DNA from: Deltaproteobacteria bacterium | Lineage (GTDB): Bacteria; Myxococcota; JACPTQ01 | Assembly (NCBI GenBank): GCA_016192705.1 | Contig: JACPTQ010000072.1 | Span: 6,611 to 70,610, forward strand | Length of the DNA: 64,000 bases | Reading direction: 5' to 3' | Notes under the pieces: generated by a model | Told to the model about the DNA's origin: nothing | What the model saw: the letters and a program-made list of their open reading frames with translations, nothing else | Database searches by the model: none | Made by a program: the position numbers and the translations under genes | Shown: in pieces, positions 5,563 to 57,672 of the stretch | Position numbering within the stretch: position 1 is the stretch's first letter | Layout of the letters: each line of letters starts with the position of its first letter

Positions 5563-5564
5563 AC

Positions 5565-6638: not shown

Positions 6639-6665
6639 CCTGCTGAGAATCGGTCGATTCCTATC

Positions 6666-7439: not shown

Positions 7440-7677
7440 GATCCTTCCTTCCTTTCGCGTTGGTTGGCGCTCGGCTTCGCAACTCGCTCTCACCCGCGCC
7501 TCACCTGAACGAGAGCAAGCGACGGGCCGCCCAGCCGGTGTCGGGGCCAGCGAAACGACGCGCATTTCTCAGAGTGATGCTCCGCGGCAACGACACAATC
7601 GGTCTGCGACGTCGCGCCCGCTTGTCAGGGGCGATGTGGTAGGCTGTCGGCCTAACAAGTTGCTGAAGGAGCAATTA

Positions 7678-20267: not shown

Positions 20268-20698
20268 CGCTTGTCCGTTTTTCGCTCCTCAGTGAAGACG
20301 TCGTCGTCCGTGCCGTCGGCCTTATCCGGCCCCTTCGAGTGGATCTCGAATCCGCTCGCATCCGACTTCTTAAGATAAAGATACGGCTGGTCCCACGGGT
20401 CGAGTGGAACTTTGCCGCCCTCGAGATATTTTGACACCTCTTCGAGCGTGTCCGGAAACGACCGGTGCGTCGTGCGATACGTTTTCACCGCGGTGTTGAG
20501 ATTCCCGATCTGAATGCGCGCCGTTCGCACCTCGCCTTCCTTCAGCGCATTCACAACCGCGACGCCGACGACCCCCGCAATGAGCCCGATGATGGCGATG
20601 ACGACCATGATCTCGACAAGCGAAAAGCCTCTTGGCCGCGCTCGCGATAGGGGCCTGTCTGCGTCGTTGCCTTCGTCGCTCGCGCCCTCAACGTACAT
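20264..20698 (-). CDS. gspG: type II secretion major pseudopilin GspG
   Basis: Chosen start MYVEGASDEG... gives a 25-aa leader ending RPRG|FSLVEIMVVIAIIGLIAGVVGVAVV. Strongest pseudopilin signature in the cluster; about 144 aa, as expected for GspG. Confidence 0.8.
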   Translation of the reverse strand: MYVEGASDEGNDADRPLSRARPRGFSLVEIMVVIAIIGLIAGVVGVAVVNALKEGEVRTARIQIGNLNTAVKTYRTTHRSFPDTLEEVSKYLEGGKVPLDPWDQPYLYLKKSDASGFEIHSKGPDKADGTDDDVFTEERKTDKR

Positions 20699-20808
20699 AA
20701 GAGTACGCCTCGGGCTCTCACTCCTCGGCGCCTTGCATCCAGACCCTTCTCGCGAGCCCGGATCCAACTTCATCTCGTTCTCTTCTTTCTCTTCCATCTC
20801 TCTCCTCC

Positions 20809-21952: not shown

Positions 21953-22030
21953 TCAGTTCTTCTCAGTGTCTTCCTCTGTACCTTTGTGTCTCTGTGGTTG
22001 CATTTTCTTCTTCTTGTTCTTCTCTTCTGC

Positions 22031-23776
22031 CTACGCAACATCCTCCTGCGTCACGCGCATCACCTCCGAAATCGTCGTCACCCCCTGAACGACCTTGAGC
22101 AGCCCGTCGTCGCGCAGCGTCCGCATTCCACGCTGGATGGCGAGCTTCTTGATGGTGTTCGAGTCGAGCTTTCGCCGTGTCATGTCGCGCACGTCGTCGT
22201 CGATCATCATGAGTTCGTAAATCCCGACGCGCCCCACGTACCCGGAGTTAAGGCAAGCGGGGCAGCCTTTCTCACGAAACACCGTGAGCCCGGCGCTTTG
22301 ATTGGGATCGAGCCCAAGCTCGACGAGCTCCGCTTCGCTCGGCTGATACGGAACGCGGCACGCTTTGCACACGACGCGCACGAGGCGCTGCGCCAAGACC
22401 GCGAGAAGCGACGACGACAACAAGAACGGTTCAACGCCCATATCGATGAGTCGCGTGAGCGCCCCTGGCGCATCGTTCGTGTGAACCGTTGAAAAGACGA
22501 GGTGCCCCGTGAGCGACGCCTGAATCGCAATCTCCGCTGTCTCAAGGTCGCGGATTTCGCCGACCATGATGACATCCGGGTCGTGGCGTAAAATCGATCG
22601 AAGGCCCCCCGCAAAAGTGAGCTCAATTTTTGGGTTCACTTGGATTTGACTGACGCCCTGCAGCTGATACTCGACCGGGTCCTCGACCGTGATGATCATC
22701 TGGTCCTTCGTGTTGATTTTCGCGAGACACGCATAGAGCGTCGTCGTTTTCCCGCTGCCCGTCGGTCCCGTGACAAGCAGAATTCCGTGCGCGCGCTGGA
22801 TGAGTTCCTGCATCACCTTGTAATTGTCTTCCTGGAAACCGAGCGACGATAAATCGACGAGCACCGCCGACCGGTCGAGGAGGCGCATCGTGATTCGTTC
22901 GCCGTGCGACGTTGGCGCCGTCGCGACGCGAATGTCGATGTCTTTCCCCGCGAGTTTTATCCGAATGCGTCCGTCCTGGGGGAGCCGCTTCTCGGCGATG
23001 TTGAGCCCCGCCATGATCTTCACGCGCGACGAGATCGACGCGTGGTATCGCTTCGCGGGGCGCATGATCTCTTTCAACACGCCGTCAACGCGAAACCGCA
23101 CCGAGATGTCGCGCTCCATCGGCTCGATGTGAATGTCGCTCGCGCGGTCTTTCACCGATTGAAAAAGGAGCGAATTCACGAGGCGAATGATCGGCGCCTC
23201 TTCGTCAACGTCGAGAAGGTCTTGCGGTTCTTCGAGCTCGTGCGCGATGTTTTGGAGGTCGGCCCCTTCAAGATCGTCCATCGCCGCGTCGGTAACGCCA
23301 CTCTTCCGATCGAACACGCGGTTGATGGCGTCGAGGATCGTCTGGCCGGCCGCGAGAACCGGGCGCACCTCACGCCCCAAAATCGCGCACAAATCATCGA
23401 GTGGCGCCGTGTCGACCGGGTCCGCGCACGCAACCTCCACCGCTTCATCGACCCAACGCAACGGCAAAACGCGGTACTGTTTCGCATAGTTGATGGGGAT
23501 CGGCCCGACGACCTCCGTTTGAATCGCCTCGGCCGCGATCGCCTCGACAACCGGCAAGTCAAACTGCAGGCCGAGCGCATGGACGACGTCGGCCTCCGTC
23601 ACGGCCTTCATCCCAACGAGCAACTCGCCGAGTCGCCCCCCACGCTCACGCTGCAACGCGAGGGCTTCGTCGATTCGCGCGACCGTCGTTCGCCCGTGTG
23701 CAACCAGAATCTCGCCGAGCGGGCGCCCGACCCAACTTCGTTCCGCGCCCATCGCTCCAACCCGCATCGGCCTCAC
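22031..23776 (-). CDS. gspE: type II secretion ATPase GspE
   Basis: 581 aa; N1 domain, Walker A LVTGPTGSGKTTTLYA, Asp box, His box, and tetracysteine zinc motif CKACR...GCPACLNSGY. Start overlaps the gspD stop. Confidence 0.9.
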   Translation of the reverse strand: MRPMRVGAMGAERSWVGRPLGEILVAHGRTTVARIDEALALQRERGGRLGELLVGMKAVTEADVVHALGLQFDLPVVEAIAAEAIQTEVVGPIPINYAKQYRVLPLRWVDEAVEVACADPVDTAPLDDLCAILGREVRPVLAAGQTILDAINRVFDRKSGVTDAAMDDLEGADLQNIAHELEEPQDLLDVDEEAPIIRLVNSLLFQSVKDRASDIHIEPMERDISVRFRVDGVLKEIMRPAKRYHASISSRVKIMAGLNIAEKRLPQDGRIRIKLAGKDIDIRVATAPTSHGERITMRLLDRSAVLVDLSSLGFQEDNYKVMQELIQRAHGILLVTGPTGSGKTTTLYACLAKINTKDQMIITVEDPVEYQLQGVSQIQVNPKIELTFAGGLRSILRHDPDVIMVGEIRDLETAEIAIQASLTGHLVFSTVHTNDAPGALTRLIDMGVEPFLLSSSLLAVLAQRLVRVVCKACRVPYQPSEAELVELGLDPNQSAGLTVFREKGCPACLNSGYVGRVGIYELMMIDDDVRDMTRRKLDSNTIKKLAIQRGMRTLRDDGLLKVVQGVTTISEVMRVTQEDVA

Positions 23777-26553: not shown

Positions 26554-26702
26554 CACACCCACCTTCACTGGATCTGGTAGTTCAACTTCTTTTTCGTGCC
26601 ACCGCCCGAAAGTTCGATCTGAATTGAGCTCGCATCCTTGAGCCGCCGCCACGCGTCGAACGCCTTGTCGGGGCTATCGATGTCCTCGCCGTTTATTCGT
26701 CG
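26384..26702. repeat. direct repeat copy 1 (about 320 bp, about 95% identical to copy 2): PDZ 3' half + 11-nt SD-containing intergenic + signal-peptide coding 5' end
   Basis: Aligned by eye with 26956-27274. Period 572 bp. Lower-identity paralogy continues on both sides. Confidence 0.85.
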
Positions 26703-27125
26703 AATCACGTCGCCGCTTTTGATTCCAAGCTTCGAAAAAAGACTCTCCGGCCGAACGCTAAACACTTTGATACCCACGGTTTTAGCCCTTTCAAAATAGA
26801 GGGCGACTCGCGGGCACGGCGTGAGTTGGCCCTCTTTGGAGGGTTCGGAAAGCAACTCCTGCCGGGAGATAACGAGATTGGCTTGCGAATCGTTTCGGAT
26901 GGTCTTACGGGATAACGTTTTTGGCAGATGTTTCTTTTGATCTTGTTTTCTCGGTCGCGCCGGTTCTTCATCCTGCGCCTGCGCCGAAAACGAAAAAGCC
27001 AGGACGGGGAGTAACCACAGAGGCCCTGAGATTCGGAGATTGGAGGAGGCTGAAAACCTCTTTCTCTTCCGACCTCTCTCACTCTGCGTCTCTGTGGTTT
27101 CTCTTCTATCTTCCATCTCTCTCAT
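26565..27125 (-). CDS. chimeric GspC-like PDZ protein carrying the GspD-type cleavable signal peptide (predicted soluble periplasmic PDZ paralogue)
   Basis: Start MREMEDRR... with the same SD and spacing as gspD. Signal peptide LWLLPVLAFSFSAQA|QDEEPARPRK is nearly identical to the GspD N-terminus. It is followed by a short linker and a PDZ domain whose C-terminal half (GDVIRRINGEDIDSPDKAFDAWRRLKDASSIQIELSGGGTKKKLNYQIQ) is nearly identical to the GspC C-terminus. No TM anchor or HR domain. Confidence 0.6.
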   Translation of the reverse strand: MREMEDRRETTETQSERGRKRKRFSASSNLRISGPLWLLPVLAFSFSAQAQDEEPARPRKQDQKKHLPKTLSRKTIRNDSQANLVISRQELLSEPSKEGQLTPCPRVALYFERAKTVGIKVFSVRPESLFSKLGIKSGDVIRRINGEDIDSPDKAFDAWRRLKDASSIQIELSGGGTKKKLNYQIQ

Positions 27126-27274
27126 CACTTCCACCTTCACTGGATCTGGTAGTTCAACTTCTTCTTCGTGCCGCCGCGCGAAAGTTCGATCTGAATTGAG
27201 CTCGCATCCTTGAGCCGCCGCCACGCGTCGAACGCCTTGTCGGGGCTATCGATGTCCTCGCCGTTTATTCGCTG
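26956..27274. repeat. direct repeat copy 2 of the gspC-3'/gspD-5' junction segment
   Basis: Partner of 26384-26702. Confidence 0.85.
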
Positions 27275-28102
27275 AATGACGTCTCCGTTCGTGATGCCGA
27301 TCTTCGAATAGAGGCTTCCCGGCCTGATGCTAAACAACTTGAACCCCGCGCCCTTACCCCCTTCAAAGTGCGGGACAATTCGGGCTTCCGTCGCGAGCTG
27401 GTTTAGGTTCGAGAGCCGATTCTGAACCTCCTGACGCGTGATGACGTAATCGCTGTCTGAAAGTTTTTTGATGTTCTTGTCGTCGACGGCGGTTGGTGTC
27501 CCTTCGCTCGCCGAAATCGTTGGCGGCGACGCGGCCGCTCGTGCCGCGCGCGCGCGTTTTGCCTCGTCGTCCATCGCTTCGAGTTTTTCGCGCTTGCCTC
27601 CCTGCTCAAGAATCACAGTGGGTCGCGGCCACCGATCGATTTCAACGATGGTCCACCCCTGAATGGCGCTTCCCATTCGATACAGCTCCGCTTCGGCGTT
27701 TGGAGCGGCTTTGTCTCGAATCGCCGCGAACGACCACGCAGGATTTTGCGCGACGATGGTGCCGACCAACTCCGCGTTCAGCTTGCTGTCTTGAACGTCG
27801 CCTTCCTTTTGTGGCACCAGCGCCGAACCCGCATCGGGCGGTGCTGTCGCGGCTTCGTACGAGTAACTCGAATTGAAAATGTTCGTCTTCAGGAGAGGCA
27901 TCGGATCTTTGCGGACATTTCGCGGCGCGGAAACAACGGGCAGCGGTGCCGGAGGATCGCCCGAAGCTGGCGCCACCGTGAGTGCGCGTTCGATCCAGCT
28001 CGATGCGCCCCAGGAACCGACGAGGGCGCCGAGCGAAACGACGCCGACGTTGACAACCCAAAAGTAGCGCTTAAGAACGGTTTGAAGGGTGGGCAGAGCC
28101 AT
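27137..28102 (-). CDS. gspC: type II secretion protein GspC (TM anchor, HR domain, PDZ domain)
   Basis: 321 aa; N-terminal TM (YFWVVNVGVVSLGALVGSW), Pro-rich linker, HR-like region (LVGTIVAQNPAWSFAAIRD...YRMGSAIQGWTIVEIDRWPRPTVILEQGGKREKLE), and C-terminal PDZ (FKLFSIRPGSLYSKIGITNGDVIQRINGEDIDSPDKAFDAWRRL). First gene of the gsp operon. Confidence 0.7.
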   Translation of the reverse strand: MALPTLQTVLKRYFWVVNVGVVSLGALVGSWGASSWIERALTVAPASGDPPAPLPVVSAPRNVRKDPMPLLKTNIFNSSYSYEAATAPPDAGSALVPQKEGDVQDSKLNAELVGTIVAQNPAWSFAAIRDKAAPNAEAELYRMGSAIQGWTIVEIDRWPRPTVILEQGGKREKLEAMDDEAKRARAARAAASPPTISASEGTPTAVDDKNIKKLSDSDYVITRQEVQNRLSNLNQLATEARIVPHFEGGKGAGFKLFSIRPGSLYSKIGITNGDVIQRINGEDIDSPDKAFDAWRRLKDASSIQIELSRGGTKKKLNYQIQ

Positions 28103-28277: not shown

Positions 28278-31200
28278 CTAAGGAATCCGTTTCACGAAGA
28301 CGGCCGTATTGTTCGAGCATCTCGCCGCTTCAAAGCGCCCCGCGGGAACTCTCTTGCGGTAAACGCCCCATGGATGGTTATCCGACGCGCGATAGATCGT
28401 CCCCACCTTCGTCCAACCGCCGCCTGGAGGCTGACACTTGGTGTGGTCGTACGCATCGGTGTGATAAACGATCGCCGGCTCAGTGAGCGTAAAGACTGGC
28501 GGAACCCCGGAGCCACCCTGAATGAGAACGCTCCCCTCCATTTCCGGGAGCAGATTCTTTATCGGCTCAAGGTTGGAGCGGTAAATAAACTGCCTGCCCA
28601 CCGGATTCTCATGCGGCCCCGCAATCGCCGGCACCACGTCTCGGACGAGTCGGGAAGCGAATCCTGACGGCCACCCCGCTCGCTGCGCCGTGACGCCGTA
28701 CTTAAACTCGCTGAGGTTCGGCTTTTGCGCTTGTTGAAGGTTCGAGAATCTCCCCTCGAGCGAGTTCGCGGAAACCGTGAGCCGGTACCACTGCCACCAG
28801 CCGGGGCTGACCCGACGGAGCTCCAAGACCCGCGTGGCCGGGTCGAAGCTCACCGAGTCGATATTCTCGCGCCCAGCGCCCCCAAAGCGCAGGTCGAGTT
28901 GATACCCGGATCCGGCTCGCGCGATCTCGAGATCGAACCTGTGGTTGTTCGCGTTGCCTTGCCACTTACCCGCGGGGTCGACGACGGGACTCTGGGATGT
29001 CGCGGCAGGCCCTTGTGCCGCCGCACCCGCCGCCTTGACCGCGTCCTCCGCAGCCACGCTGGTGCATTTGACGACGGCGCCGAAGGTTGCGCCCACGTTT
29101 CGCGTGAGGTTGTTCTCACAGCAGTCGGACGCCTTTCTGACGAACGTGTCGCGTCCGGCGCTCGCGACCTTACCGATGGCCGACTTCAGGTCGCTCACCC
29201 CCGGAACACCGCGCATTCGCGCGTCGCCAAAAAACGCATCGACCGCTTTGAGTCCGTCGTCGGCTGACGAAATCGTTCGGTTCAACGCCTTTCGGTACTC
29301 GGAGCACGCAAAGACCTTGAGCGCCTCGCCCGCCGCGGCGTTCAGTGACTCCGCGAGGCACTCGGTCGCATTCTTGAGCATGCCGCTGAAATTGGCGCTC
29401 CCGCCACAGCTCGGCTTGCACTTGGGGTTCGACTCGAGTTCGTTCGCGAACGTCGAAAACCCAGTGTCGGTGAGCGTCGCGACCTTGTCGCGCAAGTCTT
29501 TCGGGAATCCGAGCTTCACGGCGCTCGCAAGCTTTTCGATGTTATCGACGACCGCACCTTTGAGCGTTCCCGAGCGCGCCTCATTCGCGATCCAGCGCAC
29601 AGTGCCGTCGTACGCTGCCGCCGCGAGCGCCGTCCCCGCGCACGATCCGGCCTGGCTCACGAGCGCGCCCCAATCGACGTTCGCCCCGATGTTGAGCTTC
29701 GAGCCGTCGGCGCCGATGCAGCTCTCGAGGCACTGTGACATCGCCGGAATCCCGTACCGTCCGATGTTCGCTCCCACGCCCTTCAGCATGTCTGGCAGGT
29801 TGACGCTTCCCGCGCCCCCGAAGTTAAGCGAAAAATTGAGCCCCGCGTTCTCGAAGAAGCCAGCGAGATTCGCAAACTGCAACCGGAACGTCTCGCCTTC
29901 GCCGCGGGCGGCATCGACGACCTTCATAAGCGCTTCTTTGACGAGCGCGTTTCGGCCAACAATGAGCGCGCTCTCGGCTTCTCGCCTTAGGCACGCGACG
30001 ACGCCGGTCACGAACCGGTCGAACGCGCCCCTCCAATCGTTCCCTTCGAACGCGAGATTTACGCACGCCGCGCGGATCTGAAGGCCGAACTTCTCGACCG
30101 CGGCGCCCGAAGCTTTATCAAGCATTGCGGCCACATTGAAGTCGCCCGGAATCGCCCGACCGAGCGCGCCGAAGAGCGAACTGAGGCCGCCTTTAATTGC
30201 GCCAAAACCAAGACCAGAAAAGGCATCCAGCGCGCCCGCCGCAAGGCCGATTTGTGCCCCAACGCCGAGGCAATTGAAGAGGTTCTCAAGGAACTTTTTG
30301 ATCCCTTCACCCTTGCCAATGTCGCGTGTGACGCTTGAGCAGACCTGACCCACGAATCGTCCAAACACGGCCGCGCCGGCGTCGAGCCCACTCTTCAAGA
30401 GCTCGTCGAGTTTCCCGGGGAGTGCGGGAAACGAAAGCTTAAATCCGCCGAACGAACCCACGAACGCGCCCCAAGCCGCGTCGAGGCCGGACTTCGAGGT
30501 TGCGCCCTTCGCGATTTCAGCGACGGCGCTGACGATGGTCGACTCCTGGAGTGCGTTCAACGCGACGGGTCCGATGCAATCAAAGACCTCCTTCGCGAGT
30601 GCCGCGACGTCGCCACCTTTGAGCTGCTTGTTGCCGCAACTTAGCCGAAGCTCAACGCCAAATCGCCTGCCACTTTCCGTCGCAATCTTGCCCGCGAACG
30701 TCATCAGGTCGGGCGGCATTCCGAGTCCCCACGCGCCAAAGACGTCTCCGAGAAACTTGATCCCGTCGCCGAATCGGTTGGATTCCTTCTCGGCGAAATC
30801 GGCAAGCCTTTGGACCGCGGCCAAGATGAGATCGCCCGGCCCATACTCCTTCTGCTCCGTGATCGCCCCGAGCTTGCGAGCCGCGTCGCGCAGCTTGTCG
30901 AGCGGGATGACCGCGCCGACACCTTTGCAAAGCGCCTTGAGCGGTTCGCTGAGAACCGGTCGAAGGGCGTCGAACGACTGGTTCAAGAGCGGCTTCAGGA
31001 CGAAGTTGCGCACGAGTTCCTTGGCGCCTGGAATGCGGATGTTCACGACCGGGATCGCGGTGCCGTCGAATACAAAGTCGCTGACCTTTTCCGCGATGAG
31101 CGGCGCAAGGAAGGTATCGTGAAGCGCGTTAAGCGCAAAATGAGACAGAACCCCGGCGACCGGGCCGAGAAGGGCGCCGACGCCACCGAGCGTCGCACCT

Positions 31201-34200
31201 GCCGCGGCTACGGCCTGCGTGATCATGGCGACGAGGGGAGGGTAGATCGTCTTCGTCACCACGGGGAGCTTCAGCACCGCTTCGACGAAGCCGCTCACGA
31301 TCCCGACGAGTGCGGGTCGAAGCATGATGGCCGCTTGGTCGAGGAGCGCATCGATGAGCTTATTCACCGCGTCGGCGATGGCCTGCGTTTTTCCGCCAGG
31401 CGAGGTCATCGCCGCGAAGGGGTCTGGGCAAAGGCCGGTGACGGTCTCGACGATCTTTGCGAGACTGCTGACGATATCGAGAATTTTTCCTGCGCCTGTA
31501 AAGAAGTCCTTTACATCTTTAAAAACAACGCGAACCCTCGGCGGCACGAGTCCGCAAACCGGTTCAATCGCCGAAACCTTTGTTTGCCCCGCAAGGCAAT
31601 CGATCGCGTTCTGCCCGAGCGCGGTGATGAGCCGGCCGACGGGGCCCGTCACGGCGCTGTAAATCTGATCGAGGACGGGCGAGACGATCGTGTCAAACGC
31701 GTCGGAAATCGCTCGCTTTACTCCTTCGGCTATCGGTACGCCATACTGGTCCCAGAGCGCCTTCGCGGAGTTTCCGACGAAGTCGATCGCGTTCTTTCCA
31801 AGGTCGACGACGTACGTGACGGCGCCGACGGCGGCTTGCCCCATCGCCTGAAGCCCGGCGGTCGTGAATTCGCCGACCTTCGCGAATCCGTCGCCGATCC
31901 CTTTCGCGAGACTCCCGCCTTCGACCATGACGTCGCTCATCGCGCTGTTGAACGTGCTCATCGCCGCCTGCGGATCGCTAAACATCTGCCCGACGCCGTT
32001 CGAAACTTTGCCGACCCACTTCCCAAATTTTTCCCACGGCGGCGCCTTGGCATCGGCCTCGCGGCGCGCCTGTTCTTCAAGCGCTCGTCGCCGATCGTCA
32101 GCGGCCTTTGACGCTTTCGTCAGCGCCTCCTGCGCGTTCGCGCAAAAGTCATCGTAACGTTTGTCGCCGTCCGCCAAGAGGGACCTTATTTGCTCAAAGC
32201 CGGTGCAGTTCTTTTCCTTGGCGGTCAGGTTTTTCGGGAAACTGAGCGATGGCAAAAAGTCACCTCTTCCCGATCCTTTGCACCGACTTGAGATTTGGCT
32301 AAGCGTATCGTCGGCGTCTTTCCTATTGCCACTGCCGAGGTGACGCATCGCGGTTTCCACATCGATCCTGATAATTTCGAAGCTGAACCAGAGTGTGCCC
32401 TTAGCCACGTCGTGGCAGTCGTTGAGGCGCGCGGCCGTTTCATCGAACTCCTTTGTTTTCGCCTCGACGAGGTTGGTGACGATCTGTCTCGCGCTTGAGT
32501 AAACCGTGTTAAGCACGACCGTGACGGGGCTCACCATGGCCCCGGCGCAAGGCCCGTCCTTTTTCGAGAACTGCGTGAGAACATGTTTCCCGAGAGCCTC
32601 GATGGTCTTTGCAAATTCTCCCTGGCCGTTTTCAACCCATTTCCCAAAGTCGCTCGCCTTCTCAAAAGGGAATCGCGAGAACGGCGGTTCAAAAACAGCG
32701 CGAAACTTGGCGAGCCCCTGTGAGATGCAGGCGTTTTCTTTCATCCAGAGTACGGTGCCGGCGGTGCTATCGAGGTTGCTCTCGGAAACAAACTTTCGTC
32801 GCGCGTCGGCGGTGGCGAAATGGTTTCGCAGCCCTTGCGGGCCGCCGCCGCCCACGCCGTCGTCGAGCAACTTTCGCATGAGCGTGAGCGCGCGGTTTGG
32901 ACGCGTGCCGCTCGGGTGCTCCGGCAATGTCGGATTCATCAAGTAGCCGGCGATCCCGGGATAATTGGCGCGCAATTCGGCGGTTGCCACGAAGATGAGC
33001 GACTTCACCGCCTCGCCCTTAAGGCGTTCGAGCTCGGCGCCAATCCCGAGCTGACTCAAGAAATAACCACGCTTCTCGCGCACCGACTTTTCGAGTTTCG
33101 CCGGGTCGTTCGCGCCTTTGCACCAGCCCCACATCTCCTTGATGACGGTGCGGAGCGGCGATGCGCGACTCGGATCGCTCGCGTCGTCGAAGAGCAGCAT
33201 GCCAGCGATCGATGGATAGTGGTCGAGCTCCGTCGCGAATTCACGACGAAGAGCGGCGATGGCGGCGTCACGATTGGGACTTCCGACCTTTAGTTTGTCG
33301 AGCAGGGAGCCCTGCTCTTGCGTTAGCTTTGCTCGGACGTTTGCGGCGTCCAAGCGTTCAGTGGACGAAAACCGGCGGAGCAGCGCCTTAAAGAACGGGT
33401 TCCCAGAACTCGTAACCGCCGGAATGATTTGCGGCGAACACGTGATGGCGTCCTTGAACACCGTGAGAAGCGACGAACGAACAGTCTCTTCGCGCAACCG
33501 AACGTATTCCGCTTCAACTTTGTCACTCACCGGCTTTTCCAGGAGCGGCGCGATGAAGTTCGCAAGGTTCCGGCTCTGTGGAATCCGTCTTTGGTCTCGC
33601 GACGAAATGATCTGCCAATCGGCGGGCGTGAGTTTGACGTTGCTCGTCTTCGCGAGCGCCGTTTTCAGCAGGTCGGATGATGGGTCTTTGAAGATCGCGC
33701 GAAGGCCGGGCTCCACTTTGGTGTAATGGAAATACGCAAGGTCGAGGGCGTTGACGATTTCGAGCCCGTCGATGCACTTCGATAGCGCGACCGCAACCTG
33801 GTTCGGGTCTTTGTTAAACCCGAACTTTGGGAACTGGCGTTTGATCGCCGCGTAAAGGACCTCATACCGTTCGTTGACGCAAAGCCGCTCGCGTTTGAAA
33901 ACATCGAGTCCTGTTTCGGTCAGCGCTCGAATCAACTCGGACTGCCTTGACCAGTTGCCTCGTATATCCTGCTCCCATTTGCCTGGCGGCGACGTCCGTA
34001 TCCAATCCGCGGCGGCCTGAACTACGCGGCCGTTCGGATGAACGGCGGCGCCAAGCACGGTTGGGAAGTTCTGCCGAACGATCGGAAAGAGACTCGCAAT
34101 CACTTGCCCCGCATACAATCGCCGCAATTTGTCGAGCTCGCCAAAGATCGCCTTGAATCCAGGGAAGCCGGTCTTATTTGCCTTGAGTTTCTCAAAAAGC

Positions 34201-35249
34201 TCGTCGCGTAAAACTTGTTCGGGCGATATGATCTGGCCGGACCTGCGGGTCACTGGGCCGCCCACTTCGAAGTCGTTGAACCGTCCCCGCCCCGACCCCG
34301 TAGGTTTTTTTAGCTTGGTGAATGAGGCCACAACGGCGTCGATGGCGGCGCGCATCGGAACTCCGTTTGGGTCGAGAAGGACCGGCCGCAGTTTGTATCC
34401 GACGGAGCTGTCTTCGTCGGCATAGACGAGCGGAAGGACTTGGCTCGCGACGGACGGCGCGTAGCAGCGAGCGACCGCAGCTTTGATCGCAGGGGTCCAG
34501 TCGACTTCTTTCATCCGCGACTGAAGACGCACGAGAACCTGGCGTTCGCGTCCAGGTCTGACAACGATTGGTTCCTGGAGCCGGCGCGCGAGGATTTCCG
34601 GGAGCTCTGTTTGCCGCGTCGCCTCGATGGCTTCGACGACGATCGCGCAACCGCCGATCGACGCGGGCAGACTGCCCATATAGATGTTGATTGCCTGACG
34701 CTGTGCCGTGAGGGCGATCCGCTCAACGTCCGCGAAGGTGAGTTTTTCCGCGACCATCTCGGCTTCGATTTCGTCGATCCGCTCCTTGGGGGGTGCCGGT
34801 GCCCTCGCGGCCCCCGCTCCATAGAAAACACGACGAAGGACGCCCCACTCGATGAGGTTGCGCCGCATCTTCGAGTCGCTCTGCAGCTCCTTGATGAGCG
34901 CCGTCATGATTGGAGCCACGGAGAGGTCTTGGCCGAACCCCGGGACGTTGGCGAGCGCTTTTTTCCACCGTTCAAACTCCCGCGGATCGGGCTCTCGTCC
35001 TAAGACAGTCTTGTAGGCGTACGCGGTGTTTCGACAGATGGTGCTTTCATTGTTTGGAGCGCACCCCGTGGTCGTCGCGCGCGTAAGCGCACGGCACGTG
35101 TCGTGTGTGTGCCAGGCGCACCAATCGGCGGCGCGGTCAGGTTTCCGCTGCGCTTGCACAGACGCTGGCACCGACCAAGCGAGCAAGAACGCCGGCATAA
35201 CGAGTCTGGCCATCCGAGTTTTCCACTTAAAACGTGCTGCAAACCGCAT
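28278..35249 (-). CDS. giant secreted protein (2323 aa), mostly alpha-helical/low-complexity, no recognised catalytic domain
   Basis: Uninterrupted 6.97-kb ORF directly upstream of, and co-oriented with, the gsp operon. N-terminal signal peptide (MARLVMPAFLLAWSVPASVQA). Cys-rich N-terminal module with a LGREPDPxEFERW motif, then long A/G/L/K-rich helical regions. Shares short motifs with the 828-aa protein at 52404-54890. Confidence 0.6.
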   Translation of the reverse strand: MRFAARFKWKTRMARLVMPAFLLAWSVPASVQAQRKPDRAADWCAWHTHDTCRALTRATTTGCAPNNESTICRNTAYAYKTVLGREPDPREFERWKKALANVPGFGQDLSVAPIMTALIKELQSDSKMRRNLIEWGVLRRVFYGAGAARAPAPPKERIDEIEAEMVAEKLTFADVERIALTAQRQAINIYMGSLPASIGGCAIVVEAIEATRQTELPEILARRLQEPIVVRPGRERQVLVRLQSRMKEVDWTPAIKAAVARCYAPSVASQVLPLVYADEDSSVGYKLRPVLLDPNGVPMRAAIDAVVASFTKLKKPTGSGRGRFNDFEVGGPVTRRSGQIISPEQVLRDELFEKLKANKTGFPGFKAIFGELDKLRRLYAGQVIASLFPIVRQNFPTVLGAAVHPNGRVVQAAADWIRTSPPGKWEQDIRGNWSRQSELIRALTETGLDVFKRERLCVNERYEVLYAAIKRQFPKFGFNKDPNQVAVALSKCIDGLEIVNALDLAYFHYTKVEPGLRAIFKDPSSDLLKTALAKTSNVKLTPADWQIISSRDQRRIPQSRNLANFIAPLLEKPVSDKVEAEYVRLREETVRSSLLTVFKDAITCSPQIIPAVTSSGNPFFKALLRRFSSTERLDAANVRAKLTQEQGSLLDKLKVGSPNRDAAIAALRREFATELDHYPSIAGMLLFDDASDPSRASPLRTVIKEMWGWCKGANDPAKLEKSVREKRGYFLSQLGIGAELERLKGEAVKSLIFVATAELRANYPGIAGYLMNPTLPEHPSGTRPNRALTLMRKLLDDGVGGGGPQGLRNHFATADARRKFVSESNLDSTAGTVLWMKENACISQGLAKFRAVFEPPFSRFPFEKASDFGKWVENGQGEFAKTIEALGKHVLTQFSKKDGPCAGAMVSPVTVVLNTVYSSARQIVTNLVEAKTKEFDETAARLNDCHDVAKGTLWFSFEIIRIDVETAMRHLGSGNRKDADDTLSQISSRCKGSGRGDFLPSLSFPKNLTAKEKNCTGFEQIRSLLADGDKRYDDFCANAQEALTKASKAADDRRRALEEQARREADAKAPPWEKFGKWVGKVSNGVGQMFSDPQAAMSTFNSAMSDVMVEGGSLAKGIGDGFAKVGEFTTAGLQAMGQAAVGAVTYVVDLGKNAIDFVGNSAKALWDQYGVPIAEGVKRAISDAFDTIVSPVLDQIYSAVTGPVGRLITALGQNAIDCLAGQTKVSAIEPVCGLVPPRVRVVFKDVKDFFTGAGKILDIVSSLAKIVETVTGLCPDPFAAMTSPGGKTQAIADAVNKLIDALLDQAAIMLRPALVGIVSGFVEAVLKLPVVTKTIYPPLVAMITQAVAAAGATLGGVGALLGPVAGVLSHFALNALHDTFLAPLIAEKVSDFVFDGTAIPVVNIRIPGAKELVRNFVLKPLLNQSFDALRPVLSEPLKALCKGVGAVIPLDKLRDAARKLGAITEQKEYGPGDLILAAVQRLADFAEKESNRFGDGIKFLGDVFGAWGLGMPPDLMTFAGKIATESGRRFGVELRLSCGNKQLKGGDVAALAKEVFDCIGPVALNALQESTIVSAVAEIAKGATSKSGLDAAWGAFVGSFGGFKLSFPALPGKLDELLKSGLDAGAAVFGRFVGQVCSSVTRDIGKGEGIKKFLENLFNCLGVGAQIGLAAGALDAFSGLGFGAIKGGLSSLFGALGRAIPGDFNVAAMLDKASGAAVEKFGLQIRAACVNLAFEGNDWRGAFDRFVTGVVACLRREAESALIVGRNALVKEALMKVVDAARGEGETFRLQFANLAGFFENAGLNFSLNFGGAGSVNLPDMLKGVGANIGRYGIPAMSQCLESCIGADGSKLNIGANVDWGALVSQAGSCAGTALAAAAYDGTVRWIANEARSGTLKGAVVDNIEKLASAVKLGFPKDLRDKVATLTDTGFSTFANELESNPKCKPSCGGSANFSGMLKNATECLAESLNAAAGEALKVFACSEYRKALNRTISSADDGLKAVDAFFGDARMRGVPGVSDLKSAIGKVASAGRDTFVRKASDCCENNLTRNVGATFGAVVKCTSVAAEDAVKAAGAAAQGPAATSQSPVVDPAGKWQGNANNHRFDLEIARAGSGYQLDLRFGGAGRENIDSVSFDPATRVLELRRVSPGWWQWYRLTVSANSLEGRFSNLQQAQKPNLSEFKYGVTAQRAGWPSGFASRLVRDVVPAIAGPHENPVGRQFIYRSNLEPIKNLLPEMEGSVLIQGGSGVPPVFTLTEPAIVYHTDAYDHTKCQPPGGGWTKVGTIYRASDNHPWGVYRKRVPAGRFEAARCSNNTAVFVKRIP

Positions 35250-52403: not shown

Positions 52404-54890
52404 ATGCGAAAAAGGAAAGCGAAACTCTGGCTGTTGGGGGCTGCCGCCGTCGGAACTTTTCTCGGGAACGTGTCGATCGAAACGGGCCAGGTCGGCCTCG
52501 TGTCGACCGCGCGGGCACAGTTCGATCCCTGGATTCAAGTGTGCGGACCTTGGGATGGCGGGTGCTGGCCCTCCGACGGAAACTACTATGGGGATGGTAA
52601 ACGAAGATGGTTCCTCAAGGTTATCGGTTGTCAAATTGATTGGGGTAGTGACTTTACGAACCAAGGGAGACGCGATGGCTTTTTTAATTGCGTGCATAAC
52701 AACGCTAAAAAGCTCATTGACAACGCTGGGAAGGCGCTCAACGAAGGAAAAGACTGGGTGGTGAACCAGATCAAAAGTCCGTTCGGCTGCCCGCTTCGAA
52801 TCGATAACATCGGCGGTTTCCTCAACTGCCTCGGGAGAAAACTCAAAGAACAATGGGATAAGGCCGCCAAAGCGATGCAGCAGTGGGGAAGTTCCGCGGC
52901 CCAGTTCTTTGATGGTTTTATCTACGACATTATCGGGAAACCAATCGGCTGCTCGAGAGAAAACAGTCGGGTCTCCAGCTTGGCCCGCTTAGCGGAATGC
53001 GTCGGCAAAGAGATTGCGAAAAAGGGCAGCGAAATGTTCGAAGCCGGCAAGAAGACGCTCGGCGACTTGACCGGGGCTTTCGGGAAGATTGTGGAGGCTG
53101 TAAAGCAGTTCCTCGGTGCCAACCCCAAGTTTTTGGATGCGCTCAAATGTGCCATCCCGGGAGGAGAGGCTCTTGTTGCCAAGGAAGCCCAAACATTTAA
53201 GCTCGTCGAGGGAATCTTCGGTTTCATCACGAATCCCGTCGGGACCATCAAGAACTGGCTTGACTTCGGGCAGATGGGCAAAAACTTGATGGCGAAATTC
53301 GATGAAGTCAAATCGCGGGCTGTCTCGCTCATGGGTCGGGTTGGCGGCAAGTTGCAACAAGCCGGAGCGGCGTTCGGCGCCCTGCTCGAATCGCCAAAAA
53401 ACGGGGCGAGGCGCGAGGCCGTCAAGAAGCCCGTCAGGGAGGCCCTTGGTGATGTTTGGGTCGAGACAAGCGCGTTCGCAAAGAACATTCCAGGAATGTT
53501 CTGCCCCTTTACGATGGCCGAGGGCTTTGGGCTCGTGCACTTCGCGATAGATGGCGTGACGGGTCTCGTGGTGGAAGCCATCGCAAACGTCTTTGGTACC
53601 GCGAAGGACGTTTTGGACGGCGCCATTCAAAAGGTCACGGACAAATTGAAGGAACTCTTTCAACAGTTCATCAGCGGCAGGCTCCCGCTGGCGATCGCGA
53701 ATCTTCTTCCGCCCTGGCTCAAAGATGTGGGGTTATCGATCCAACGCGTGGTGGGTCAGGTGACAGGCCTCTCAAAGGACATGACATCAAAGATCAAAGG
53801 GTTTGTCCTCGACATCAAGAAGGGCGGCCAGAGTGCGCGCACGGCACTCACGCAGCTACAGGGCGTCGTCGGTTCTCTGCCCCGGCTTGATGCGGGAGGC
53901 TTTCGACTCGCGGTGCGTGCGGGCGTTGAGTTACTCAAGCAGTGGGGGCGAGGACTCATCGATGTGGAGCTTGGCAAGATTGTCGATGGCGCGCTGTCAG
54001 GTCTTTCGACATCGGTCGGCGTCTTGACGAGCGGCATCGATGCGGTTTGTGGGCTCGTTCCTTTTGTGGGTGCGGCCATCTGCGCGGCGACTATTACGAC
54101 TGGGCTTCGCGTTCTGTGGGACTGGGTGGGCGCTCCGCCGGTCAAAGAAATGGGCCTCAAGTTTGTCCGTGAAAAGATCGACGGCATCGCCGACTGGATT
54201 GGCGCAAACCTCGACAGCGGCGCTGTCGGAAGAACCACGGCTCAGATAGGCCAAACACTCGGCGGACTCCAGAATTCGCTCGGTGGGCTGTTGGACAGCA
54301 TTAAGGGATTTGTGAATACGCAGATCCTGCCTGTCGTAGAGGGCTCGCTCGGCATGAACGATCTCCTCTTTCAGCTGCCGCAGTTGCCCGCGCTGGCGGC
54401 CGGCACAGCGCCCGCGTGCCCCGCGTGTCCGTCCTGTCAACCAGCCGCCCCGTGCGCCGCGTGCAGTTGCCCAGTCGCGAGTTCGTCGCCGCAAACATCA
54501 CAGGTGCAACCGGCCGCATCTGCGCCGTCGTTTCCACCCCGCGCGCAACGGGGATGGGCGTCACCTGCGCCGTCGTTCCCACCGCTCGCGCAACGGGGAT
54601 GGGCGTCACCAGGAGCTGCCGACCTTTGGCCAGAGGTGTTTGATTGGCGATGGTACGTCGAGAACCAACCTGACTTGAAGCGAGCGCAATCCGGACAGGC
54701 CCAGGCGCAGAGACATTGGCAAAGTCACGGGATTCGCGAGGGGCGGCAGGCGCACCCGAACTTCTCGACAAAGGCCTACCTCGCGAGGTATCCGGACCTT
54801 CAGCGTGCGTTCGGTGCGACGGGCTACGCGAAGGCCCTTTATCACTATCTCAACAATGGGATCAAAGAGGGACGTAAGGGCGCGCCCTGA
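52404..54890 (+). CDS. secreted alpha-helical protein (828 aa), distant paralogue of the 2323-aa giant protein; lower GC
   Basis: Signal peptide MRKRKAKLWLLGAAAVGTFLG. Shares motifs with the giant protein (AVCGLVPFVGAAI vs PVCGLVPPRV; GAFGKIVEAVKQFLG vs GAGKILDIVSSLAKIVE). C-terminus has a 54-nt tandem duplication (SFPPRAQRGWASP x2) and a repeated HYxNNGIKEGR-like motif. GC roughly 55-57% versus about 67% nearby. Confidence 0.5.
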   Translation: MRKRKAKLWLLGAAAVGTFLGNVSIETGQVGLVSTARAQFDPWIQVCGPWDGGCWPSDGNYYGDGKRRWFLKVIGCQIDWGSDFTNQGRRDGFFNCVHNNAKKLIDNAGKALNEGKDWVVNQIKSPFGCPLRIDNIGGFLNCLGRKLKEQWDKAAKAMQQWGSSAAQFFDGFIYDIIGKPIGCSRENSRVSSLARLAECVGKEIAKKGSEMFEAGKKTLGDLTGAFGKIVEAVKQFLGANPKFLDALKCAIPGGEALVAKEAQTFKLVEGIFGFITNPVGTIKNWLDFGQMGKNLMAKFDEVKSRAVSLMGRVGGKLQQAGAAFGALLESPKNGARREAVKKPVREALGDVWVETSAFAKNIPGMFCPFTMAEGFGLVHFAIDGVTGLVVEAIANVFGTAKDVLDGAIQKVTDKLKELFQQFISGRLPLAIANLLPPWLKDVGLSIQRVVGQVTGLSKDMTSKIKGFVLDIKKGGQSARTALTQLQGVVGSLPRLDAGGFRLAVRAGVELLKQWGRGLIDVELGKIVDGALSGLSTSVGVLTSGIDAVCGLVPFVGAAICAATITTGLRVLWDWVGAPPVKEMGLKFVREKIDGIADWIGANLDSGAVGRTTAQIGQTLGGLQNSLGGLLDSIKGFVNTQILPVVEGSLGMNDLLFQLPQLPALAAGTAPACPACPSCQPAAPCAACSCPVASSSPQTSQVQPAASAPSFPPRAQRGWASPAPSFPPLAQRGWASPGAADLWPEVFDWRWYVENQPDLKRAQSGQAQAQRHWQSHGIREGRQAHPNFSTKAYLARYPDLQRAFGATGYAKALYHYLNNGIKEGRKGAP

Positions 54891-55203
54891 GCAGGGCAAT
54901 CGTCGTTTGATCGAGATTCTATAGGCGACTCCCGTACGCGTCTGACGGCGCAGGAAGAAACTGCGCGAGAAGGTCGCCGCGGCGGCTCGTGACGCGCGAT
55001 TTGCGGTGTCAGGTTAATCCTTTCAATCGGCTGACGTCGTAATAAGCGGTGATATTTCAGGTTGTTACGGGCGTTAGTCCAAATGCGTGACGCGCCGCCC
55101 CAATCGGCATCAGCGATGCACACCGCTCCTTCGGGTTGGACCGACCCGTCCTGGGAAACTGGGCCGCGTCGGGGAGTGCCTGTGGCTTGAAAAGGAGGCC
55201 AGC

Positions 55204-57672
55204 ATGTCTCGATTCGTTTTCGTGACCGTCGCGCTCTTCGCGGCCGTTGGGTGTGGAAGTAAAGGGGAGAAGGGGGAGATGGGGACGAATGGGTCAGCGG
55301 GTCCGGGGGGCGACGCGGGACCAGAAGGCGCCGCGGGTCCCGCGGGCGATGCGGGTGCGACGGGTCCAACCGGTAACGCGGGTCCGTCGGGAGACGCCGG
55401 GGCCGCGGGAACGCCGGGCGCATCGGGCGGCACCATAACGGGATCGGTGAAGGACACGAACAACGCGGGCCTCGTGGGTGCCACGATCTCGACGAGCCCG
55501 ACGTCATCGTCGACGGCGAGTGACGTGAGCGGAAACTTCTCGCTCGCGTCAGTTCCGAACGGCGTCTTCACCGTCATCGCGACGTTGGCCGGTTACGGGG
55601 CGTCGAGCGTGACGGGCGTGAGCGTGACGGCGGGTGGTTCGACGAGTGCCGCGTTCGTGCTTTACTTGGCGGACGGCGGGTTTGCGTCGATCAGCGGGAC
55701 GGTCAAGAACACGGCCGGCGCCGCCATTGCGAACGCGACGGTCAGCGTATCGGGCGTTGATGCGTCCGCCGTGACCGCCGCCGACGGAACGTACACCATC
55801 ACAAACGTCCCCGCGCCCGGGCCCTATTTCCTCGACGTCGCGCCGCCAACGAACGACGCCGATGCGGGGTATTTCGCCGGCGACACCCGCGTGAGCCTTC
55901 TTCTCACGCGCGCGTCACACACCGACGCGAGCATTATTCTGTCTGCGCGACCTTCGAGCGCGGCAACGTACATCGGAACGTCGCTGTGCGCCCTGTGTCA
56001 CGCGGTGGTCGGTGACACGACGATTGTCCCCCGACATGCGTCGGCTGGGCATTGGCGCTCCTTGAGCCTCGATGGCGGTGAGCGCTTCGTCTCGACGAGT
56101 CTCTGGCCGAGCGTGGGTGCGACCGTCGACACCGGAAAATACGCGCAAGATCCAAACGGCGTGAAATATGACGCGGGGAACGGCGGCAGCGGCTGGAACC
56201 GCGTTTACCTGTGCCAAAACAGCGCGGGCTCTTACGCGATGATGTTCGGCCCAAACCCCGATGCGGGTGTCGACGCTGGGTGCACCGGCGCTGGGGGCAC
56301 GACCCAGGGAATCGTTATCCCGGTCGCGGGAACGTACGGCGGTGAGGGCGATCGGTCGACGTGGGATGGCGGGATTGTCGCGAACCTAGGAAAATTCAAG
56401 CAACGATTCTTCGCGCGGGTCAACGATGTCGATTCGGGGACCGGGTGGACTTACACCGCTGGAAAAGACAAAGACCTTCTCGTCCTACCCGTGCAGGTCA
56501 CGCAGTCCGGCGATGGATACCCCAAGTTTGACGTGTACAAAGAAACCGAATGGGCGAACCGCAATCGAACGTTCGCGTACGCGTGCGCGGGATGCCACAA
56601 CACCAACATGAACATCGTGTGGGACCAGGCTGGCGGCAGCGACTACATCACGAGTTACGCGTACACCGACCTCAACGTCGGCTGCGAGAAGTGCCACGGC
56701 CCGGGCTCCGAGCACGTCGCGGTGGGTGGCGGTTTGGCCAAGGCGATCATCAACCCGAAATACTTGACTGCGGACCGCGAGCGCCAGGTGTGTGGGCAGT
56801 GCCACTCGGGTGACGACGGAAAAAACGAGGGGAGCCAGAAGAAATACGGTTACGCGTACAACCTGAATTACGCCGACGCGGGCGCGACGTACATTGGGCG
56901 AGGGACGTACGTGCCCGGGTTCTACGACATCAGCGAGTTCATTTCGAACCTTGACGGCGGTGCTTCTTTCAACGCATGGGCGACGATTTTCGGCACGAAG
57001 ACGTGGGGCAAGGCGCACCGCCAGCAGTACGCGATGCTGCTCAAGTCGAAGCACGTGAACAACACGACGCGGCGAATGACGTGCGCGAGTTGCCACGACG
57101 TTCACAGCACGTACCAAGGTCCGAAGGCGCACAGCGTCACGTCGGGGAGTGACACGTTTGTGTTCGAAACGCCGAGGTTCAACAACAACGTGCTTTGCCT
57201 CTCGTGCCACGCGGGGAGCGGCGAGTTCGCGACGATGGCGACGAGCGACGTCGCGGCGATTCAGGTCGGCGACTCGAGGGTTGTTTCGAAGAACGGGACG
57301 AACCAGAGCTTTACGGCGGGCGAAATAGCGTCGGCGCTCGAGCGCGTCGGAGATGTGGTTGAAGGCCATATGAACAACAAGGCAAACATGGGTTTCTTCG
57401 TGATGTACGACCCTGAGCGCGAGCCAGGCGTTGGGCGCTGCATGAACTGCCACATGCCGCGGACGGCGAAGAGCGGCGGCTATACGACGGGCGTTGATGA
57501 ATTCGGCAAGACGGCGCTTATCGAAGGCGACCAGGGGTCGCACGTGTTCGACGTCATTCGGCCGCAGATGAGCCGCATCATGACCGACGGCGGCGTCTCC
57601 GACACGGCCGTCATGCCGAACTCGTGTGGCCCGTGCCACGCGCGCTATCGCTTCAGCGGCGACGGGCAGTAA
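55204..57672 (+). CDS. lipoprotein: collagen-like (Gly-X-Y)20 segment + carboxypeptidase-regulatory-like beta domains + octaheme c-type cytochrome domain
   Basis: AAGGAGG SD 7 nt upstream of ATG. Lipoprotein signal MSRFVFVTVALFAAVGC. 20 uninterrupted GXY triplets (GSKGEKGEMGTNGSAGPGGDAGPEG...GTPGASGG) at about 55255-55435. Eight CxxCH motifs (CALCH, CAGCH, CEKCH, CGQCH, CASCH, CLSCH, CMNCH, CGPCH). Confidence 0.7.
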   Translation: MSRFVFVTVALFAAVGCGSKGEKGEMGTNGSAGPGGDAGPEGAAGPAGDAGATGPTGNAGPSGDAGAAGTPGASGGTITGSVKDTNNAGLVGATISTSPTSSSTASDVSGNFSLASVPNGVFTVIATLAGYGASSVTGVSVTAGGSTSAAFVLYLADGGFASISGTVKNTAGAAIANATVSVSGVDASAVTAADGTYTITNVPAPGPYFLDVAPPTNDADAGYFAGDTRVSLLLTRASHTDASIILSARPSSAATYIGTSLCALCHAVVGDTTIVPRHASAGHWRSLSLDGGERFVSTSLWPSVGATVDTGKYAQDPNGVKYDAGNGGSGWNRVYLCQNSAGSYAMMFGPNPDAGVDAGCTGAGGTTQGIVIPVAGTYGGEGDRSTWDGGIVANLGKFKQRFFARVNDVDSGTGWTYTAGKDKDLLVLPVQVTQSGDGYPKFDVYKETEWANRNRTFAYACAGCHNTNMNIVWDQAGGSDYITSYAYTDLNVGCEKCHGPGSEHVAVGGGLAKAIINPKYLTADRERQVCGQCHSGDDGKNEGSQKKYGYAYNLNYADAGATYIGRGTYVPGFYDISEFISNLDGGASFNAWATIFGTKTWGKAHRQQYAMLLKSKHVNNTTRRMTCASCHDVHSTYQGPKAHSVTSGSDTFVFETPRFNNNVLCLSCHAGSGEFATMATSDVAAIQVGDSRVVSKNGTNQSFTAGEIASALERVGDVVEGHMNNKANMGFFVMYDPEREPGVGRCMNCHMPRTAKSGGYTTGVDEFGKTALIEGDQGSHVFDVIRPQMSRIMTDGGVSDTAVMPNSCGPCHARYRFSGDGQ

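Follow-up and report, generated by a model that had tools for sequence, protein, structure and literature searches.

A predicted lipoprotein joining a collagen-like Gly-X-Y tract to an OcwA-type octaheme cytochrome c domain in an uncultured Myxococcota-type bacterium

What would a multihaem cytochrome do with a collagen-like segment at its N-terminus? This question is raised by an open reading frame (ORF) at positions 55204-57672 of the + strand in a 64,000-nucleotide stretch (hereafter the window) of contig JACPTQ010000072.1, assembly GCA_016192705.1. The ORF encodes 822 amino acids (aa) from an ATG start, and its product is identical to NCBI MBI3074188.1, a protein from a “Deltaproteobacteria” metagenome-assembled genome (MAG) that goes in the database only by the name “carboxypeptidase regulatory-like domain-containing protein”. 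An earlier note on this DNA had described a lipobox cysteine followed by 20 Gly-X-Y triplets, beta domains and a haem domain, and we find each of these parts as and where it had placed them. We are confident in the identities of the domains (lipobox, Gly-X-Y tract, beta-sandwiches and an OcwA-type haem domain). With respect to the protein as a whole, we see about an even chance that it is a multihaem oxidoreductase held by a stalk on the membrane of an uncultured Myxococcota-type bacterium, with trimerization via Gly-X-Y and reduction of an external acceptor at an open-coordination haem 2.

We place the start at the ATG of 55204 because the signal peptide begins exactly there, which also makes a longer, GTG-started ORF from 55087 unlikely. 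The strong ribosome-binding site noticed earlier is read directly from the sequence as a Shine-Dalgarno AAGGAGG at 55192-55198 (+), 5 nt before the ATG. The N-terminus, MSRFVFVTVALFAAVGC, is a lipoprotein signal peptide (aa 1-17; 55204-55254, this and all further coordinates within the gene being on the + strand), in which MSRFVFVTVALFAAVG precedes the cysteine and the lipobox A-V-G-C follows the pattern [LVI..][ASTV..][GAS]-C. The predicted first mature residue, Cys17, is conserved in 42 of 43 homologues, and the lipobox motif suggests that it is acylated. Immediately behind it lies the collagen-like segment (aa 18-77; 55255-55434), with 20 uninterrupted Gly-X-Y triplets and two K-G-E motifs at its N-terminal end. 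The 40 X and Y positions hold 6 Pro, 8 charged residues (3 Asp, 3 Glu and 2 Lys) and 2 Gly, and composition alone cannot plausibly yield 20 in-phase glycines out of 20.

Is this tract a peculiarity of one sequence? In a survey of the tethers of 51 close homologues, 41 of which have a recognizable lipobox, we observe at least 4 Gly-X-Y triplets from Cys+2 to the first beta-sandwich in 34 of the 41, and at least 10 triplets in 16 of them (median 8, maximum 29, range 3 to 29). Even the shortest tethers hold the Gly-X-Y register from Cys+2, and the typical tether ends in P-A-V-D-x-G-T-I, the beginning of the first beta-sandwich. One subclade (P0024, P0026, P0028, P0029 and P0031) retains each of its 16 Gly positions together with an interruption of two residues, with X/Y identity at 46-70% versus 70-80% elsewhere in the protein. 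These alignments indicate that the Gly-X-Y tract is a conserved, selected feature.

The fusion of collagen-like and cytochrome parts might still be an artefact of assembly or gene calling, for instance through a contig that is chimeric or a repeat that has collapsed, given that the source is metagenome assembled and the identical protein sits on a single contig. Yet the architecture recurs in dozens of independently assembled homologues (NCBI, JGI, ENA and Logan), and the ORF is continuous, with its Shine-Dalgarno sequence and signal peptide in place. The DNA of the tract consists of 9/18-nt tandem repeats that are imperfect (73-91% matches), which makes a collapsed perfect repeat, as well as very recent slippage, unlikely. 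With independent homologues and imperfect repeats both speaking against it, we regard this explanation as effectively refuted and its remaining probability as negligible. The earlier note would have given up its reading had the collagen region been absent in orthologues or due to assembly error; instead, the tract is present in most orthologues and across independent assemblies, and the dozens of homologues that keep both the Gly-X-Y and the octaheme modules answer its call for such a search.

Does the tract form a triple helix? We consider this somewhat probable. Gly is kept while X and Y evolve fast, a pattern that a triple helix would demand and a disordered spacer would not. Furthermore, K-G-E and K-G-D motifs, which are strongly stabilizing in collagen peptides, are frequent in the homologues and clustered right after the cysteine. 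In lipidated collagen peptides, N-terminal acyl chains stabilize and register short triple helices, and the tract, invariably placed right behind the predicted acylated cysteine, fits by analogy the idea of a lipid-registered helix. Like Scl1/Scl2, BclA, Lcl and Bucl8, the window tract is an uninterrupted Gly-X-Y run without hydroxyproline, with Pro-enriched X positions, charges and a variable repeat number. It differs from them in starting directly at a predicted lipidated cysteine and in being short, at 20 triplets where Scl2 reportedly has 79. These known proteins are adhesins, spore filaments or efflux-channel appendages in which a trimerizing partner domain is recognized, and none of them has a redox domain. 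Across the family, Pro and Ala each make up 21% of the X positions, and the Y positions are 17% Pro and 22% Ala, with Asp, Thr and Lys often seen; the Pro content at X lies near the value of 19% given for bacterial collagens (PMC8968730). The Pfam Collagen profile (PF01391) does recognize relatives whose Gly-X-Y tract is similarly placed, namely, P0049 (34.7 bits), P0058 (31.1 bits) and P0221 (48.0 bits), and the NCBIfam matches of the window protein, all of them below threshold, include weak Lcl and SclB matches that cover the tract.

Between the tract and the haem domain lie two CarboxypepD_reg (transthyretin-like) beta-sandwiches. The Pfam profile (PF13620) matches the window protein at 86.4 bits (cut-off, 32.3) in two stretches within aa 77-245, and an AlphaFold2 (AF2) model built on the family alignment (mean predicted local distance difference test [pLDDT], 82.8; predicted template modelling score, 0.79) shows the corresponding folds at aa 75-152 and 159-245, so that profile and fold agree on membership. 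The first sandwich occupies aa 77-153 (55432-55662) and the second, which coincides with the second PF13620 stretch and the model strands 159-245, aa ~159-245 (55678-55938). Pfam, to which the earlier note had looked for recognition of the modules, accordingly delivers a clear CarboxypepD_reg assignment, a Collagen match under its cut-off and weak multihaem cytochrome matches.

What kind of cytochrome is carried on this head? The closest solved relative by sequence is 6I5B, with E values of 2.9e-8 for the single sequence and 1.6e-28 for the family profile, which is the structure of OcwA, a nonahaem cell-surface terminal reductase of Thermincola potens (PMC6703420). The profile alignment spans OcwA from haem 1 to the last haem and includes the blocks CExCHGP, CGQCH, CxxCHMP(K/R)TA and MPxSCxxCH. 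From this alignment and the model, the haem domain is placed in the NrfA/HAO/MccA/OcwA superfamily, within the OcwA/OmhA/MccA/c554 clade (clade 3) as defined by Soares et al. (PMC9250108). It covers aa ~250-822 (55951-57669), ending 10 aa after the last haem motif, and its eight CxxCH motifs start at aa 262, 461, 494, 530, 627, 665, 746 and 808. The count of eight haem sites given earlier stands, as all eight CxxCH motifs are invariant in the 43-sequence family alignment.

Haem 1 (CALCH, aa 262-266; 55987-56001) aligns with the first OcwA CxxCH, with His283 as its probable distal ligand. A beta-rich insertion, seen in the model secondary structure, separates it from haem 2 (aa ~300-450; 56101-56553), and we infer that it is equivalent to the beta-sheet domain that OcwA and MccA each possess (PMC6703420). 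Inside this insertion we also observe a non-haem cysteine pair, Cys337 (56212-56214; present in 35/43) and Cys360 (56281-56283; 27/43), which may form a disulfide in an extracytoplasmic domain. Haem 2 (CAGCH, aa 461-465; 56584-56598) aligns with a CAGCH of OcwA and is read as OcwA haem 2. Haem 3 (CEKCH, aa 494-498; 56683-56697) lies inside the invariant CExCHGP...H504 block and is followed by haem 4 (CGQCH, aa 530-534; 56791-56805). Then come an H605-R606-Q-Q-Y motif (57016-57030), aligned with H281-H282-L-Q-Y of OcwA, which there forms the distal pocket of haem 2, and haem 5 (CASCH, aa 627-631; 57082-57096) with the invariant His634 behind it. Haem 6 is CLSCH (aa 665-669; 57196-57210), haem 7 is CMNCH (aa 746-750; 57439-57453) within the CxxCHMP(K/R)TA block that is common to OcwA (CVDCHMPKTA), and haem 8 is CGPCH (aa 808-812; 57625-57639), preceded by a conserved MPNS that contains Met804.

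The distal ligands can be estimated by counting. Outside the motifs, His283, His504, His634, His722 and His780 are invariant, position 617 is His in 37 of 43 sequences and Met in 5, and the pocket His605, Met804 and Met751 are further conserved residues. The count is compatible with bis-His ligation of six haems and His-Met ligation of another, which leaves one haem open. OcwA has two penta-coordinate haems, each under a His-His pair (H281/H282 and H380/H381) of which H282 and H381 are non-bonding, and its haem 2 is penta-coordinate (PMC6703420). In the window protein, H281 aligns with His605 and H282 with Arg606, and there is no His-His aligned with H380/H381. By the ligand count, the coordination scheme would equal that of OcwA minus one open haem, as in MccA, and the alignment makes haem 2 the candidate open-coordination, substrate-accessible haem. 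The pocket is conserved across the family, with His605 in 41/43, Arg at position 606 in 32/43 (His in 8/43) and Gln608 in 43/43. The haem domain is no orphan, being an OcwA/MccA-clade module with a probable open-coordination haem.

Despite the shared haem-domain fold and sequence, the protein differs from OcwA and from OmhA of Carboxydothermus ferrireducens (PDB 6QVM), which are both cell-surface terminal reductases of Gram-positive bacteria. It has 8 haems versus 9 in OcwA and 11 in OmhA, sequence identity is only ~24%, and it is a diderm lipoprotein with a collagen-like tract and two CarboxypepD_reg domains, N-terminal parts that OcwA and OmhA do not have. In addition, the C-terminal three-helix bundle, a feature of the superfamily and of OcwA that is used in oligomerization, is missing: in all family members the chain stops within 7-46 residues of the last haem (10 in the window protein), and the model has no terminal helix bundle. 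A trimer has its precedents in the superfamily, in HAO and MccA. With MccA, the octaheme sulfite reductase of Wolinella succinogenes (PDB 4RKM), the window protein shares the clade, the eight haems and the beta-sheet insertion. The hallmarks of MccA, namely a CX15CH eighth haem, the Cu-binding Cys pair and the catalytic Lys/Arg/Tyr set, are absent from it. In MccA the active site lies in the N-terminal module, and OcwA haem 5 is absent (PMC9250108).

Other cytochrome families fit less well. MtrC and OmcA, the decahaem outer-membrane lipoproteins of Shewanella, are likewise lipid-anchored multihaem proteins of a diderm and act as terminal reductases, with a haem fold that differs from that of the window protein. 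An assignment to MtrC/OmcA/MtrF was rejected, since the Pfam MtrC-MtrF_II-IV match (28.0 bits; cut-off, 30) covers a generic haem stretch only and there are eight haems instead of ten; no MtrAB-type partner genes occur near the gene. Assignments to the NrfA/NrfB, DmsE and GSU2203 families were also rejected, with matches far below the cut-offs that reflect generic haem motifs.

How could these parts work together? In the mechanism that we propose, the lipidated protein would be anchored in the outer membrane, on its periplasmic face or on the surface, and three chains, registered by their N-terminal lipids, would wind their Gly-X-Y tracts into a triple helix of ~17 nm (60 residues at a rise of 0.286 nm), which would replace the lost helix bundle as the oligomerization device. 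The resulting semi-rigid stalk would hold three octaheme heads, with 24 haems, off the membrane. Within each head, six bis-His haems and one probable His-Met haem would pass electrons to or from the open-coordination haem 2, which could reduce an external acceptor, be it a mineral or organic oxidant as in OcwA and/or a small N- or S-oxyanion. The stalk length, 3 to 29 triplets across orthologues, would tune the reach.

Several observations weigh against this proposal. The window protein does not pass the Pfam Collagen profile (25.4 bits; cut-off, 27.2), its tract is Ala rich with only 15% Pro, and the AF2 monomer model shows no secondary structure at aa 18-77 (pLDDT, 46-68). No known trimerization domain was found in the protein by Pfam and NCBIfam scans, and OcwA itself is a monomer or dimer (PMC6703420). 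In many orthologues the tract is down to 3-5 triplets, a length at which a helix would not stand by itself, so that either the downstream domains self-trimerize, for which we see no evidence, or the tract works as a spacer. As to which OcwA haem is missing, two lines of evidence disagree: the sequence alignment leaves the 7th OcwA motif unmatched, and the ligand count points to the 5th. Lastly, no porin-cytochrome, quinol dehydrogenase or ccm gene that would point to an electron donor or a location was found in the 64 kb of the window.

The points that concern the tract are also what one would expect if Gly-X-Y were a flexible, extended lipoprotein tether whose length varies by repeat slippage, with no triple helix and with the cytochrome as a monomer or a loose dimer like OcwA. 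The wide range of tether lengths and the tandem repeats in the DNA suit this explanation as well. A disordered spacer, however, needs no Gly at every third position, and yet the periodicity is perfect over 60 residues, with Gly conserved and X/Y diverging faster than the rest of the protein. Furthermore, the shortest tethers still keep the register, the repeats match too imperfectly for recent slippage, and the usual C-terminal oligomerization helices have been lost in the family. We view the flexible tether as a rather unlikely alternative to the triple helix.

Where would a triple-helical, stalked protein act, and on what? By analogy with OcwA, a cell-surface location and extracellular electron transfer can be suggested, and a role as an extracellular terminal is favoured by the resemblance to OcwA and OmhA, the stalk and the adhesin-type spacers. 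A second possibility is an enzyme that faces the periplasm, is induced by its substrate and uses haem 2 to reduce or detoxify something soluble (for instance nitrite, hydroxylamine, NO, sulfite, tetrathionate or a metalloid oxyanion), in which case the stalk would position the enzyme in the periplasm; this would fit either oligomeric state. It is favoured by the conserved pocket and by dedicated, inducible regulation: the distal pocket is of the OcwA type with His-Arg-Gln-Gln-Tyr chemistry, the ligand count suggests one open haem, and no porin-cytochrome conduit gene lies near the window gene. This is in line with the reduction of nitrite and hydroxylamine by OcwA (PMC6703420) and with the nitrite or NO reductase activity that all members of the superfamily show in vitro (PMC6703420; PMC9250108). 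Taken in this specific form, the periplasmic enzyme appears to us possible rather than probable; between an extracellular electron-transfer terminal and a small-molecule reductase in general we make no confident choice, the small-molecule role being equally live and OcwA itself combining the two functions.

The inducible regulation is seen in the orthologues. A sensor histidine kinase and a response regulator are encoded immediately upstream (~2-3.5 kb) in six of six orthologue loci (L001, L003, L005, L087, L088 and L089), and the regulator is of the NtrC/sigma-54 type in five of them and of the NarL type in one. The orthologues are therefore no regulatory loners. In the five sigma-54 loci, -24/-12-like boxes stand 44-142 nt before the ATG, spaced as GG-N10-GC and ending in TTGC(A/T); four begin with TGG and the fifth (L088) with GGG, and a near-perfect TGGCACGCTAGTTGCT is found in L005. 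A two-component system beside all six genes and sigma-54-like boxes at five are typical of substrate-induced genes. In our mechanism, the orthologues would be switched on by the dedicated sensor kinase and NtrC-type activator via sigma-54, and the window copy would have lost that neighbour: no two-component system was found within 10 kb of the window gene. A weak -24/-12-like box, CGGCATCAGCGATGCA, lies at 55105-55120 (+), 99 nt upstream of the ATG, and is doubtful, with 8 of 12 consensus positions. We do not claim it as a sigma-54 box, as the orthologues with an adjacent NtrC-type regulator have much better ones.

Is the combination new? Full-text literature searches returned no description of a fusion of collagen with a multihaem or c-type cytochrome, in agreement with the suspicion voiced in the earlier note that no such family had been described, and cytochromes and lipoproteins do not figure in a review of collagen-like proteins of prokaryotes (PMC8968730). 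The nearest published analogies are PgcA and Bucl8. PgcA, an extracellular trihaem protein of Geobacter sulfurreducens that is implicated in Fe(III)-oxide reduction, is also a lipoprotein c-type cytochrome with repetitive Pro-rich spacers (PMC5732950), but its repeats are Pro-Thr, lie between the haem domains and show no collagen-type circular dichroism structure, and its haem domains have no homology to the window protein. Bucl8 of Burkholderia is an outer-membrane lipoprotein with a collagen-like region that serves as an appendage (PMC7682875; PMC8968730).

The OcwA/MccA-clade cytochrome is in itself a known kind, and what is new is its stalked, lipid-anchored format in uncultured diderms, in orthologues under dedicated sigma-54 two-component control. 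OcwA-type cytochromes, which had been limited to a small number of thermophilic Gram-positive bacteria and are described as “very poorly represented” in databases (PMC9250108), are hereby extended to diderm, mostly Myxococcota-type uncultured bacteria. If the tract does form a true triple helix, this would be the first collagen-organized redox protein found by these searches and a natural lipid-nucleated collagen assembly, a simple device whose length could be tuned to keep 24 haems at a fixed distance from the membrane. It would then matter for the question of how electrons get from the envelope to an external acceptor, and might offer a scaffold for bioelectronic materials. The current database names of these proteins, all of the type “carboxypeptidase regulatory-like domain-containing protein”, reveal neither the cytochrome nor the collagen-like part, and metagenome electron-transfer surveys therefore overlook these proteins.

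How widely is the architecture distributed? A search of 5.8 billion proteins yielded ~50 full-length homologues of the same architecture at 25-50% identity. With the haem domain alone, an exhaustive HMMER search against 1.84 billion cluster representatives matched 32 clusters at E <1e-30, 249 at <1e-10 and 1501 at <1e-3. All family members come from metagenomes or MAGs. The nearest in a species-representative genome set is from a Sandaracinaceae MAG (42% identity), and the contig names of other close relatives point to Polyangiales, Polyangia and Myxococcota. In homologues outside the Myxococcota-like bins (Geothrix, Steroidobacteraceae, Methanolobus and Nitrospirota), the Gly-X-Y tract is mostly missing. 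Two homologues with CarboxypepD_reg and octaheme domains, at 29-30% identity and without Gly-X-Y, are from MAGs of Methanolobus sp. (L010) and Methanosarcinales (L019), bins of methanogenic or ANME (anaerobic methanotroph)-related archaea; a lipobox-like IAGC precedes the L010 copy but not the L019 copy. These archaeal occurrences could reflect real transfer or faulty binning.

Does the head occur on other proteins? A lipobox plus Gly-X-Y head, usually together with CarboxypepD_reg, is found on at least three other cytochrome types. We observe this cassette in a distantly related octaheme clade of ~705 aa (P0047-P0055, L014, L015, L043 and L063), in a protein with a PF13447-type haem domain whose Collagen score exceeds the cut-off (P0058), in a protein with eight haems and an MtrC-like stretch (P0060) and in scattered octaheme lipoproteins of ~700 aa (P0137, P0200, P0210, P0221 and P0227). 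The N-terminal 159 aa as a query gave 14 matches, the query itself not being among them, and from these came ~275-aa lipoproteins with a lipobox, ~16-20 Gly-X-Y triplets, CarboxypepD_reg and three haem motifs (P0234 and P0237), as well as haem-free lipoproteins with a lipobox, Gly-X-Y and a small Cys-rich domain (P0236 and P0238). The trihaem and haem-free proteins together indicate that the cassette is modular. In ~1 Mb of loci, a sample biased toward cytochrome neighbourhoods, every ORF with a lipobox and at least five Gly-X-Y triplets is a multihaem cytochrome. In one of these, L018 with 10 haems, the tract is Gly-rich low-complexity sequence and no true collagen repeat. In a Myxococcaceae MAG (L043), the octaheme homologue at 5944-8007 is divergent from a 730-aa lipoprotein at ~3460-5651 (- strand) that has 10 CxxCH motifs and a lipobox with 21 Gly-X-Y triplets, so that two collagen-headed cytochromes stand side by side.

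Tentatively, and with less confidence than we have in the triple helix of the window protein, we suggest that Myxococcota and their neighbours may have in “collagen-stalked cytochromes” a general design not described so far. A lipid-nucleated triple helix of 3-29 or more triplets with beta-sandwich spacers would have been joined, time and again, to multihaem modules of unrelated kinds (OcwA-like octahaems, PF13447-type, MtrC-like, trihaems and a decahaem), replacing the helical bundle. The products would be trimeric, C1q-like bouquets of 9-30 haems held 5-25 nm from the membrane, reaching minerals or partner or prey cells, or spanning the periplasm.

The gene had been said to stand alone, and this holds only insofar as no electron-transfer or cytochrome maturation gene lies nearby; our own ORF calls and Pfam found no other CxxCH-containing ORF and no ccm gene in the 64-kb window, maturation genes being among the things that the earlier note had proposed to look for in the genome. 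The next gene in the same orientation, for an alpha/beta hydrolase, begins after only 59 nt, with no convincing terminator found between the two genes. A scan for sigma-70 promoters and terminators around the cytochrome gene gave no useful result. The other neighbours are a phosphatase, a deacetylase, housekeeping genes and an 828-aa protein without a Pfam match.

Elsewhere in the window, a complete type II secretion system (T2SS)-like cluster is encoded on the - strand (15328-28102), with PilM/GspL-like, GspK, GspJ, GspF, GspE ATPase, GspD secretin and GspC with a PDZ domain. In Shewanella, the T2SS exports the lipoprotein cytochromes MtrC and OmcA to the surface, and by analogy the cluster could export surface lipoproteins such as the cytochrome described here. 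Directly upstream of the cluster lies a 2323-aa ORF (28278-35249, - strand) whose N-terminus resembles a signal peptide and for which Pfam gave no match at E <= 1e-4. The 828-aa protein (52404-54890, + strand), whose gene directly precedes that of the cytochrome, begins with a signal-like segment, contains a Cys/Pro-rich stretch, CPACPSCQPAAPCAACSCP, and carries a duplicated APSFPP(R/L)AQRGWASP unit near its C-terminus.

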